Shown here: positions 6,656 through 63,967 of the stretch, piece by piece
Position numbering within the stretch: position 1 is the stretch's first letter
How the letters are laid out: each line of letters starts with the position of its first letter
Assembly: GCA_963662335.2 (NCBI GenBank)
Contig: CAXXVD010000001.1
Location: forward strand, 1 to 64,000
Length of the DNA: 64,000 nt
DNA from: Chloroflexota bacterium
GTDB lineage: Bacteria; Chloroflexota; UBA11872; VXOZ01
Direction of reading: 5' to 3'
Program-made: the position numbers and the translations under genes
Notes under the pieces: generated by a model
Database searches by the model: none
The model's input: the letters and a program-made list of their open reading frames with translations, nothing else
What the model was told of the DNA's origin: nothing

Positions 6656-6807
6656 GCAACGCGCGCGCCGCCGCTTGTGCTCCCGCCGTCCAGCAAGCCC
6701 CCAAGCCGGCCAGAGCAGCCGCCGTGCATTCACGCTATAGTTAGGGTGAGCAAAGCGGCTACCCAAGATGTAGCGTCATTCCGGTTGCTTGCGCGGAGTT
6801 CACCCAC

Positions 6808-61636: not shown

Positions 61637-61841
61637 CGCGGTATCGAGGCAGTAGCCGCTAGCTTCTCGACAACCTTAAGAATTGCATAAGAGTCTCGCA
61701 TTTGCCGCGTTGCCGTCCGCCGCTGGGCGTTGCCGCGCGGTAGCTTCCGCCCTCGTGGGCGCGGTATAGTGGGTGCGCGTGTGCGGCGCGGCAGTCCGCA
61801 AGCGCGCGCAAGCTGTGAGGCAGGCGCGTGAGGAGACTTGC

Positions 61842-62600
61842 ATGACGGTCGCTAAGTCCCAGATTCGCGCGGGACTGCAAGCGCTTGGCGTTGTATCCGG
61901 CGACCTGCTGCTCGTCCATAGTTCCCTGCGCAGCTTTGGCTACGTGGACGGCGGCGCCGAGGCGGTGCTCGACGCGCTCTTGGAAGCGGTAGGCGAGAGC
62001 GGCACGGTGCTCGTCCCCACGCTCACCTTCTCGATTCTCAAGTCCCGCCCGCACTTCTTCTCCGTCAGGAGCACGCCGTCATCATCGGGACGGATAACGG
62101 AGACGCTGCGCCAACGCGCCGCGGCCCGCCGCAGCCGCCATCCCGTCTCGTCAGCCGCCGCCATCGGCGCGCAGGCGGCTTACCTGACCGCCGCGCACGC
62201 TGACACGCCCTGCGGCCCGGATTCGCCCTACTACCGCCTCTATGAGCGCGGCGGCAAGGTCGTCTTCTTTGGCGCGTCGCTCGGTTCCAATTCGGTCTTC
62301 CACTGCGCCGAGGAGATCGCGCAACCCGCCTACTTGGGCTACGCCGCGATTGAGGCCGCCATCGTGGAAGAGGCCAACGGCCGCAGACGCACCGTCACCG
62401 CCCGCCGCTACGACTGCTTCGATCGCGGCGTAATCCGCCACTTGGGCAACATGGAGCCGGTATTCCGCGAGCGCGGACTCCTGCGGCGCACCGTAATTGG
62501 GGAAAGCCGCACGTACCTCATAGACGCCCAAACCAACGTGGACGTCTCTTGTGAAGTCTTGAAGACCAACCCTCACTACATCCTCTCCCCACTACCCTAG
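61842..62600 (+). CDS. AAC(3)/Antibiotic_NAT family N-acetyltransferase
   Basis: LLVHSSL, GTVLVPT, RSRHP, NSVFHCAEE; AGGAG RBS. Confidence 0.88.
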   Translation: MTVAKSQIRAGLQALGVVSGDLLLVHSSLRSFGYVDGGAEAVLDALLEAVGESGTVLVPTLTFSILKSRPHFFSVRSTPSSSGRITETLRQRAAARRSRHPVSSAAAIGAQAAYLTAAHADTPCGPDSPYYRLYERGGKVVFFGASLGSNSVFHCAEEIAQPAYLGYAAIEAAIVEEANGRRRTVTARRYDCFDRGVIRHLGNMEPVFRERGLLRRTVIGESRTYLIDAQTNVDVSCEVLKTNPHYILSPLP

Positions 62601-62746: not shown

Positions 62747-62906
62747 AATGCTGTCGCACTAAACAGAACGACAGCAGAACTCGCGTTTAGAATCTCCGGT
62801 AGCGCAGGCTTGTAACCTGCGAAGCTGTTAGGTCAATCCTGTGCGTGCCAGTTTGAATAGCTCCGGCGGGGGACAAGCCCCCGCGCTACATCAATGCGAC
62901 GGCATT
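62747..62906. mobile_element. Putative MITE (160 bp) carrying a REPIN
   Basis: TIRs AATGCTGTCGCACT / AATGCGACGGCATT; abuts a truncated REP at 62731-62745. Confidence 0.55.
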
Positions 62907-62978
62907 GCAGGTGAGAGGGTAAGACTCCGTTAGCGCGGCGCATTGACGCCGGTCTGCCACACGTACACCGCAACCACC

Positions 62979-63032
62979 GCACACCATCTTGCGCCACCGG
63001 CGCTTCATGGAAACTACATACTGTGGTATAGT
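62979..63032 (+). promoter_or_regulatory. Two NrdR-box-like sites (32-bp spacing) overlapping an extended -10 element
   Basis: GCACACCATCTTGCGC (62979) and AAACTACATACTGTGG (63011) vs consensus acaCwAtATaTwGtgt; TGGTATAGT at 63024-63032. Confidence 0.65.
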
Positions 63033-63123
63033 ACATTCAGAGTCCGGTGAGCGGCGCTCTTCCGCTTGGCGGGCAGGATTCGCCGAGTGGGACGGAACGA
63101 GAGAAGCCAACGGAGGTATACGC

Positions 63124-63765
63124 ATGCGCTGTCCACGGTGCGCCAAGCAAGATACCCGCGTGGTCGATAGCCGTCCGGAAGAATTGAGTATCCGCCGCCG
63201 CCGCGAGTGCGGCAATTGCGGCCACCGGTACACCACGTATGAGCGTCTGGAAGTGCTTGCGTGTCCGCACTGTGAATCCACCGAATCCCGCGTCTCGTCG
63301 TACCGTCTGCTGCGGGCGGGCGCGCGGCGCTACCGGGAGTGCCTGCGCTGCGGCAGAGACTTCACCACCACGGAGCGCGTGGATCCGGTGCCGCTGACGG
63401 TCGTGAAGCGGGACGGACGCCGGGAGGAATTCAACCGCGGCAAGCTGCGCGAGAAGATTAGCACGGCCTGTTGGAAGCGCCCGGTCGGCTCGGAGCAGGT
63501 CGGCGAGATCGTCGACGGCATCGAGCGGGAACTGCTTGAAATTGGTGAACCCGAGGTAGAATCCACGGTGATTGGCGATAGAGTGATGCAACGGCTGCGG
63601 GTGCTCGACGAGGTGGCCTACGTGCGCTTCGCCTCGGTCTACCGCCACTTCGAAGACATCGACAGCATTGCGGAAGAGATTGCCGAGTATCAACAGTGGA
63701 AACGCCGCCGCGCGCAGCCTGATCAAATCGCCCTGCTGCCGGAAGAGTCTTCCCTTCCTAAGTAG
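63124..63765 (+). CDS. nrdR: Transcriptional repressor NrdR with duplicated zinc ribbon
   Basis: MRCP.C..DTRVVDSR..IRRRREC..C..RYTTYER, a second ribbon, then ATP cone VVKRDG..LDEVAYVRFASVY; GGAGG RBS. Confidence 0.93.
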   Translation: MRCPRCAKQDTRVVDSRPEELSIRRRRECGNCGHRYTTYERLEVLACPHCESTESRVSSYRLLRAGARRYRECLRCGRDFTTTERVDPVPLTVVKRDGRREEFNRGKLREKISTACWKRPVGSEQVGEIVDGIERELLEIGEPEVESTVIGDRVMQRLRVLDEVAYVRFASVYRHFEDIDSIAEEIAEYQQWKRRRAQPDQIALLPEESSLPK

Positions 63766-63892
63766 CCCAATCCCTTTACTTAGTGGTCCAATCCCTGCGC
63801 AAGTTCGGTATAGGCGACCGTTCTCCGCAATGTCTCGACGCGAAGCAAAGCAAGGCCAACTCCATGGTTGCCGTGACAGTAGCGACTAAGTC

Positions 63893-63967
63893 TGTCATTC
63901 CCGCGCACGCGGGAATCCATCTTCCTCCCGCACGCAGTGGATTCCCGCGTGCGCGGGAATGACGGAC
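63893..63967. repeat. Inverted GTCATTCCCGC..GCGGGAATC palindromic pair
   Basis: TGTCATTCCCGCGCACGCGGGAATCCA ... TGGATTCCCGCGTGCGCGGGAATGACGGA. Confidence 0.85.

Follow-up and report, generated by a model that had tools for sequence, protein, structure and literature searches.

The gene nrdR lies towards the end of the window, by which we mean the whole stretch of 64,000 nucleotides analysed here (contig CAXXVD010000001.1 of the Chloroflexota bacterium assembly GCA_963662335.2), and it encodes a form of the regulator NrdR in which two zinc ribbons stand in tandem ahead of the ATP-cone. In nearly all bacteria NrdR represses ribonucleotide reductase, and it is under study as a target for antibacterials. 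How it works depends on the way in which pairs of ribbons and pairs of cones combine into oligomers, active or inactive: when both ATP and dATP are present the canonical protein forms a DNA-binding tetramer, and when ATP is the only nucleotide it forms inactive oligomers of higher order.

Translation of the coding sequence gives a product of 213 residues with cysteines at positions 3, 6, 29 and 32 and again at 47, 50, 73 and 76. The Pfam family PF22811 (Zn_ribbon_NrdR) matches it in two stretches (85.1 bits against a cut-off of 27.2) and PF03477 (ATP-cone) at residues 92-178 (81 bits against 25.8). The NrdR equivalog TIGR00244 also matches in two stretches (197.9 bits against 124.65), the better of which covers residues 45-188, that is, ribbon 2 and the cone. 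These results bear out the first-pass annotation, made from the sequence alone, which had described two complete Cys4 ribbons in exact 44-residue register ahead of a normal ATP cone. The motifs it had listed, VVDSR, RRRR and TTYER in ribbon 1 and VSSYR, RRYR and TTTER in ribbon 2, are as claimed, and ribbon 1 is canonical as it had stated, carrying all the DNA-contact residues (R12, D15, R17, R24-R27 and R35). The linker between the ribbons is about 3-5 residues long, and the one between ribbon 2 and the cone is equal in length to that of single-ribbon relatives. The layout of one ribbon and one cone that is usual in the family is not found here, but all other sequence, domain and box features tested are those of NrdR and, for this reason, the double-ribbon protein is a variant inside the family rather than outside it. 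It is the sole NrdR match in a genome that is 96% complete and in which a single ribonucleotide reductase is present, NrdJ, a B12-dependent enzyme of class II (TIGR02504, 569 bits). No class III reductase and no second ATP-cone besides that of NrdR were found in this genome.

An alignment of ribbon 1 with ribbon 2 in the 44-residue register has identities at 17 of 44 residues, 64 of 132 bases (48%) and 18 of 44 third codon positions, which indicates that the duplication is old and diverged. A second ribbon created by assembly or binning was nonetheless considered, given that misassembly can generate tandem repeats and that one database protein, P0123, carries an exact tandem repeat that may itself be a misassembly. 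The 48% identity of the copies at the DNA level is not what such an error would leave, and contigs from the Logan collection run gap-free through both ribbons: contig X1 record 1 (63006-63633, 1 difference), contig X2 record 13 (63007-63633, 5 differences) and, from a different study and a run labelled sponge metagenome, contig X5 record 17 (62900-63900, 42 differences). This support comes from two studies at most, and the best-matching run may be the source sample. Moreover, both ribbons are present in 44 of the 44 NrdR loci whose sequences were read, which come from the genomes of 41 double-ribbon relatives and from the window's own genome. The artefact explanation is refuted and retains practically no probability, and the statement in the first-pass annotation that this is no simple assembly duplication holds, as does the second ribbon when looked for in independently assembled reads. 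Contig joints that skip about 372-399 bases were considered as a deleted form of nrdR and rejected, as their sides match over only 21-22 letters and lie between the two most conserved NrdR motifs; they are probably single-ribbon NrdR genes of other organisms. Seven runs were listed as carrying the sequence, and none of them is an RNA run.

It is also very improbable that ribbon 1 is left untranslated and that translation starts at the GTG of codon 44 (Val44), which would give an NrdR of ordinary length. This start is present in the window, and a 91% homologue, P0006, is publicly annotated in this way, as a protein of 171 residues that begins at ribbon 2 and omits ribbon 1. However, ribbon 1 lies in frame behind a GGAGG and an ATG, it is under purifying selection (see below), its DNA-contact residues are kept in 47-48 of 48 sequences, many relatives have no start codon at position 44 (e.g., Phe, Gln or Ala), and a protein consisting of ribbon 2 and cone would be devoid of the residues that read the conserved boxes. 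The case of P0006 shows that automatic annotation can hide ribbon 1. Other lengths are found among cluster members as well (P0311 and P0313 with 125 residues, P0306 with 204), compared with the 214-residue form.

The double ribbon is the rule in the Chloroflexota class to which the window belongs. The full-length protein was used as query against 90 genomes of this class with a completeness of 80% or more. In a hand count of the outcomes, 80 genomes have a single match that begins at query residue 1-3 and extends to residue 180 or further. Three matched otherwise: G017 from residue 28, G087 from residue 44 with a separate match of residues 1-43 elsewhere, and G036 over residues 1-43 only. Seven of the 90 gave no match, all of them from family f3 and 81-89% complete. 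In family f3 a separate NrdR-like gene with one ribbon is present (L101 in G087, L106 in G028 and L107 in G036), of which the C-terminal part matches the ATP-cone weakly (E 2e-4, below the cut-off) and which in G028 is about 4.5 kb away from the reductase gene. The phylum was sampled evenly with 401 genomes, which were searched with the N-terminal 90 residues at E <= 1e-12; matches over both ribbons came from this class and from three of the 353 genomes outside it (G238, G097 and G109), and in another 31 outside the class only one ribbon was matched. A two-ribbon query against 1.84 billion protein representatives gave 5020 matches at E <= 0.001 and 20 at E <= 1e-10; two Cys4 ribbons were recognized by a simple pattern in 11 of the best 150 of these 5020 matches.

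The same order of domains is found in a lineage of Pirellulales (Planctomycetota), where 79 of 83 clusters have two ribbons followed by a cone. These proteins, which the databases name simply NrdR, have about 200-230 residues, and their ribbon 2 likewise is devoid of the equivalent of R17 (Arg in 1 of 79) and keeps an arginine motif, RRxR, and the ER motif (79 of 79). The span from the first to the last cysteine is 32 residues in both of their ribbons, versus 30 in each of the Chloroflexota ribbons, and their Asp15 position is mostly Glu. In a ribbon tree of 62 rows and only 43 columns, both Pirellulales ribbons fall with the single ribbons of planctomycetes, with a support of 95 in the Shimodaira-Hasegawa-like approximate likelihood ratio test (SH-aLRT), and in a cone tree P0133 pairs with a single-ribbon NrdR (support 99). 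Given this grouping, the different cysteine spans and the placement of the P0133 cone, the trees and alignments point to two independent duplications, one in the Chloroflexota class and one in Pirellulales, with the same outcome for ribbon 2.

Within Chloroflexota, a tree built from the last ribbon and the cone, with ribbon 1 excluded, places 43 double-ribbon rows together with the single-ribbon protein of G087 on one side of a branch with an SH-aLRT of 89.8 (IQ-TREE in quick mode, 90 rows), and FastTree on 168 rows recovers a set of 60 with a support of 96. The G087 protein (L100) groups with G028/P0012 (support 97), and its single ribbon is a hybrid that starts like ribbon 1, with the reading half, and ends like ribbon 2. 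The fact that this hybrid is nested in the double-ribbon clade indicates a secondary loss of exactly one repeat unit, with the reading half kept.

The first-pass annotation had named relatives that lack the second ribbon or show it decaying as grounds against it; 80 of the 90 genomes of the class carry both ribbons, and ribbon 2 shows no decay. From pooled pairwise Nei-Gojobori comparisons of 17 species of the window's genus, the ratio of nonsynonymous to synonymous substitution rates (dN/dS) is 0.051 for ribbon 1, 0.030 for ribbon 2, 0.053 for the ATP-cone and 0.022 for the tail (residues 181-208). Given that the value for ribbon 2 is below those for ribbon 1 and for the cone, these substitution rates indicate that ribbon 2 is not decaying and is held by purifying selection as strong as that on ribbon 1. 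With the spread across taxa now surveyed, the possibility that the architecture is common and already characterised is borne out only in part: double-ribbon NrdR is the rule in one Chloroflexota class and one Pirellulales lineage, but it is rare overall and not characterised. No description of a double-ribbon NrdR was found in the NrdR literature searched, in so far as its text was accessible, including PMC12051234, PMC9110341 (apart from its supplementary alignment), PMC12176259, 10.1101/2025.03.28.645925 and PMC13584703. It is, therefore, apparently an undescribed natural variant of a well-studied regulator, as the first-pass annotation had supposed.

What distinguishes the two ribbons is seen when the positions with known roles are compared. 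According to PMC9110341, the base specificity of Streptomyces coelicolor NrdR comes from D15 and R17, with R12, R26-29 and R37 touching the phosphate backbone. For Escherichia coli NrdR, PMC12176259 describes salt bridges between ribbons made by Arg27, Arg29 and Glu42, and ribbon pairs that move as rigid units. The counts at these positions (Table 1) were obtained from 53 sequences, which reduce to 49 unique N-termini, of which 48 were parsed.

Table 1. Residues at functional positions of the two ribbons in 48 double-ribbon N-termini
Position (role)	Ribbon 1	Ribbon 2
Asp15 (base reading)	D 47/48	D 0/48 (S 23, Q 7, A 6, others)
Arg17 (base reading)	R 48/48	R 1/48, window's genome only
S. coelicolor R12 (backbone)	R 30/48	R 47/48
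E. coli R26 (backbone)	R 48/48	R 39/48
E. coli R28 (backbone)	R 48/48	R 12/48
S. coelicolor R37 (backbone; R35 in ribbon 1)	R 48/48	R 21/48
E. coli R27, R29, E42 (ribbon pairing)	48/48 each	48/48 each
Four Cys (zinc)	first three 48/48, fourth 43/48	48/48 each

In ribbon 1 the RRRR motif and E40 are present in all 48 N-termini. The pairing trio of ribbon 2, which in the window's protein corresponds to R69, R71 and E84, is likewise complete throughout, and so are its four cysteines, in line with the claim that this ribbon keeps all of them. Judged by this pattern, ribbon 2 has kept the pairing residues and part of the backbone contacts and has lost the residues that would read bases. The proposal that ribbon 2 is a re-specified DNA-binding module is not upheld, given that its base-reading positions are not conserved and that the operators, described below, are ordinary palindromic box pairs at ordinary spacing. 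The fourth cysteine of ribbon 1 is absent from family f6 (three genera; L031, L033, L034, L093, L096 and L097), where a one-residue deletion leaves Cys-x3-His; all DNA-contact residues are kept there, and the zinc site may be of the Cys3His type.

Structure prediction with AlphaFold2 (AF2) gives both ribbons as three-stranded. The whole protein, from an alignment of 25 sequences, has a mean predicted local distance difference test score (pLDDT) of 82.2 and a predicted template modelling score (pTM) of 0.56, and the N-terminal 93 residues, from an alignment of 24, have values of 88.9 and 0.49, so that in these models each ribbon is confidently folded and the mutual orientation is not. The tail is modelled as a helix at residues 179-197, and pLDDT falls below 50 for residues 201-213. 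Ribbon 1 superimposes on residues 1-44 of S. coelicolor NrdR (7p37_A) with a root-mean-square deviation (rmsd) of 1.1 Å, a Z score of 7.0 and 55% identity, and the cone on E. coli NrdR (9fxk_G) with an rmsd of 1.4 Å over 108 residues, a Z score of 17.6 and 46% identity. Whole canonical chains align to residues 45-195 of the model (9fvr_C, Z 17.0; 7p37_A, Z 15.6), with a large rmsd that is due to a different domain angle. For this reason, the model presents ribbon 2 plus cone as a complete ordinary NrdR and ribbon 1 as the N-terminal addition by position, yet it is this added ribbon that retains the reading residues. In the fold searches no chain of known structure covered ribbon 1 and ribbon 2 together; a long alignment was obtained with 7oqy_Y only, at an rmsd of 19 Å. 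A multimer prediction with four copies of residues 1-197 scored 0.46, and one control 0.51.

Operators were sought with a 16-nucleotide NrdR-box consensus, with extra weight on C4 and G13 and a threshold of 32/44 for a pair. In the window's genome, pairs scoring at least 32/44 occur at four places only: the promoters of nrdJ, of nrdR and of tRNA-Arg(CCT), and position 6732 of the window. The last of these is a box-like pair (6732-6776, 35/44) between a sulfatase-like and a hydantoinase-B-like frame; it has an unusual spacing of 29 base pairs (bp) and was not counted as an operator. In the nrdJ promoter the boxes lie 32 bp apart, centre to centre, behind TTGACG. In the promoter of nrdR itself the pair, again 32 bp apart, is found in 17 of 17 loci of the genus (16 at the threshold and the 17th just below it); across the relatives, 16 of 30 nrdR loci reach the threshold, all 16 from the window's genus. 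The ribonucleotide reductase loci of the class carry a pair in 26 of 30 cases. The best pair in the genome (G000:C3:510341-510387; L108 4342-4388, minus strand) scores 39/44, with the boxes 31 bp apart directly behind TTGACA, and lies about 79 nucleotides upstream of tRNA-Arg(CCT), where it is kept in 16 of 16 loci of the genus. This suggests that NrdR may control tRNA-Arg. After about another 100 nucleotides follow the genes of a BtuFCD-like uptake system (Peripla_BP_2, FecCD and ABC_tran), and perhaps NrdR would also control a B12-type uptake alongside the B12-dependent reductase.

Altogether 58 pairs were collected from the reductase (nrdJ), nrdR and tRNA-Arg promoters, 56 of them unique, with a spacing of 31-32 bp in 52, 30 bp in one and 41-42 bp in three. 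C4 is kept in 55 of 56 first and in all 56 second boxes, and G13 in all 56 first and 44 of 56 second boxes; both are kept in 55 first and 44 second boxes. Sounder evidence for the operators than these counts is that orthologous promoters are conserved across the genus. The three pairs at 41-42 bp belong to class I-type, ATP-cone-bearing reductase genes of a single genus (L035, L036 and L039; family f4, genus g4). Their spacing is one helical turn longer, which recalls the one-turn-longer box spacing reported for Streptococcus pneumoniae in PMC12051234. An operator of this kind, with a pair 31 bp apart (L041), is also present in G017, a relative with one ribbon, and the DNA site has therefore been left unchanged by the extra ribbon. 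It appears that each box is read in both halves, which would require two reading heads per box and thus four per operator. An nrdJ operator with an 18-bp spacer and degenerate outer half-sites had also been entertained and was ruled out, since re-registration to 32 bp gives ordinary boxes.

When compared with canonical NrdR from E. coli and S. coelicolor (PDB 9FVR, 9FXK, 9FZF, 9GEX and 7P37), ribbon 1 matches in structure, with an rmsd of 1.1-1.2 Å and 50-55% identity, and carries the same DNA-contact residues. The operators are of the same kind as well: NrdR boxes are known as pairs of 16-bp palindromes with a spacer of 15-16 bp at reductase promoters, and here, too, a pair of 16-bp boxes lies over the promoter with a spacing of 31-32 bp. 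From the boxes in its own promoter nrdR would seem to be self-regulated as in the canonical systems. The canonical protein has one ribbon, whereas here there are two, of which the cone-adjacent one is not the reading one, and the reading head lies about 44 residues further from the cone. NrdR proteins range from 140 to 220 residues, and the extra length is ascribed to a C-terminal part in PMC9110341.

Taken together with the residue pattern, these data lead us to consider it somewhat better than an even chance that ribbon 1 is the DNA-reading domain and that ribbon 2, placed between these heads and the cones, serves for pairing and reads no bases. The N-terminal zinc ribbon was duplicated in tandem long ago, in what would be a nucleotide-sensing repressor of nrdJ, of nrdR itself and of the tRNA-Arg promoter. 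Pairs of ribbon 1 would read the two halves of each 16-bp palindromic box, so that, like the canonical tetramer, the complex would bring four ribbon 1 heads to the two boxes. Ribbon 2, which holds the cone-adjacent position of the sole ribbon of ordinary NrdR and has kept its zinc site and the Arg/Arg/Glu trio, would pair with ribbon 2 of a second chain. It would in this way provide an additional site of dimerisation that reads no bases, located between the heads that read DNA and the cones that sense ATP and dATP. The self-pairing of ribbon 2, the tetrameric DNA-bound form and any effect on the nucleotide switch are what we infer from this arrangement.

Several points weigh against this pairing role. 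The contacts of ribbon 2 are proposed from the residue pattern, and the AF2 monomers, with their pTM of 0.56 and 0.49, fix no orientation of the ribbons and would neither favour nor disfavour any arrangement. The residues equivalent to R27, R29 and E42 belong to the conserved core of the ribbon and might have been kept for folding rather than for pairing. Ribbon 2 keeps arginines that contact the backbone, the equivalent of R12 in 47 of 48 sequences and that of E. coli R26 in 39 of 48, and because of these an unspecific contact of ribbon 2 with DNA would be as compatible with the data as pure pairing. In Pirellulales the change at the position of Asp15, to Glu in 72 of 79, is a conservative one. 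The conservation of C4 and G13 arises partly by construction, given that the scan weights both, and the genomes compared are kin, so that the counts are not independent and overstate the independent support.

These retained arginines are the basis of the most substantial alternative, in which ribbon 2 would be an unspecific clamp on spacer or flanking DNA that raises affinity or bends the DNA. The equivalent of R12 is in fact better kept in ribbon 2 than in ribbon 1, where it is found in 30 of 48, and residues at the R12 and R26 positions touch phosphates in S. coelicolor NrdR, as described in PMC9110341. Nonetheless, conservation of the arginine is poor at two of the six backbone positions of ribbon 2 (the equivalent of R28 in 12 of 48 and that of R37 in 21 of 48), and the spacing and form of the boxes are the same as in the single-ribbon G017 (31 bp, L041). 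We regard a clamp as rather unlikely. A docking site for another protein, or a different oligomeric switch in which, for example, ribbon 2 bridges tetramers into an inactive polymer, is improbable. Canonical NrdR uses the faces of its ribbons in inactive dodecamers and filaments (PMC9110341 and PMC12176259), and the surface positions of ribbon 2 that replace the reading residues vary between families and are conserved within the genus. Against this idea, none of the genes nearby is a conserved neighbour that would point to a partner; nrdR is flanked by an Antibiotic_NAT-family gene and mnmE.

The pairing trio is present in both ribbons, and DNA-binding units that act as dimers are known to have evolved into tandem fusions, so that ribbons 1 and 2 of one chain could also pair with each other as a pseudo-dimer, with one chain per box and a dimer covering the operator. 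This idea lost its main support once the nrdJ boxes were re-registered and found to be ordinary. Moreover, ribbon 2 cannot read bases and yet both halves of the boxes are conserved (C4 and G13 together in 55 of 56 first and 44 of 56 second boxes, with the weights that the scan places on these positions), the inter-ribbon linker is only about 3-5 residues long, and the AF2 model of the N-terminal part does not pack the two ribbons against each other with confidence (pTM 0.49, pLDDT 88.9). A pseudo-dimer within one chain is for these reasons quite improbable, and the reading in which ribbon 1 reads DNA and ribbon 2 pairs between chains is the one we retain.

A wider consequence, which we put forward tentatively and hold to be clearly less probable than the pairing role itself, is that the extra ribbon changes how NrdR assembles. 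Pairs of ribbon 2 would add a further layer of contacts, by which dimers are fixed or tetramers cross-braced or bridged, the ATP/dATP switch would proceed through assemblies unlike the known dodecamers, octamers and filaments, and this solution would have been reached twice independently. If true, it would be a natural split of the two jobs of the ribbon, pairing and DNA reading, into two domains. The fact that two phyla have reached the same architecture with the same loss of residues argues that it is useful. A ribbon with the pairing residues only, next to one with the reading residues, is a ready-made separation-of-function experiment: the double-ribbon NrdR tests which ribbon contacts serve assembly and which serve DNA recognition, and what distance between head and sensor the switch tolerates.

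The features of the nrdR locus are collected in Table 2.

Table 2. Features of the nrdR locus, in positions of the window
Feature	Position	Strand	Basis
NrdR box 1, nrdR promoter, putative autoregulation	62979..62994	+	consensus scan
NrdR box 2, nrdR promoter, abuts TATAGT at 63027-63032; better conserved of both in genus	63011..63026	+	consensus scan
GGAGG, Shine-Dalgarno-like, ATG 7 nt downstream	63112..63116	+	sequence reading
nrdR coding sequence, 213 codons + stop	63124..63765	+	translation; Pfam and TIGR00244 matches
Ribbon 1 (residues 1-44), canonical DNA-reading zinc ribbon	63124..63255	+	residue conservation, fold match
In-frame GTG (Val44), position of annotated start in P0006	63253..63255	+	sequence reading
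Ribbon 2 (residues 45-88), zinc ribbon without base-reading residues	63256..63387	+	residue conservation, selection
ATP-cone (residues 92-178)	63397..63657	+	PF03477, structural match
C-terminal tail (residues 179-213), helix then disordered	63658..63762	+	AF2 model

The gene directly upstream of nrdR (61773-62600, +) belongs to the aminoglycoside 3-N-acetyltransferase family (PF02522, E 1.2e-51), and the downstream neighbour, mnmE, lies on the opposite strand. Other rearrangements of NrdR domains were met in the protein search. Two ATP-cones are present in P0015 and P0135, two NrdR-type ribbons are fused to a formylglycine-generating-enzyme domain in P0131, and two NrdR-type ribbons precede a C-terminus that is not a cone in P0148 and P0153. 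In these five proteins, known here from their sequences, the same two domains are reshuffled into architectures that differ from the order ribbon, ribbon and cone.

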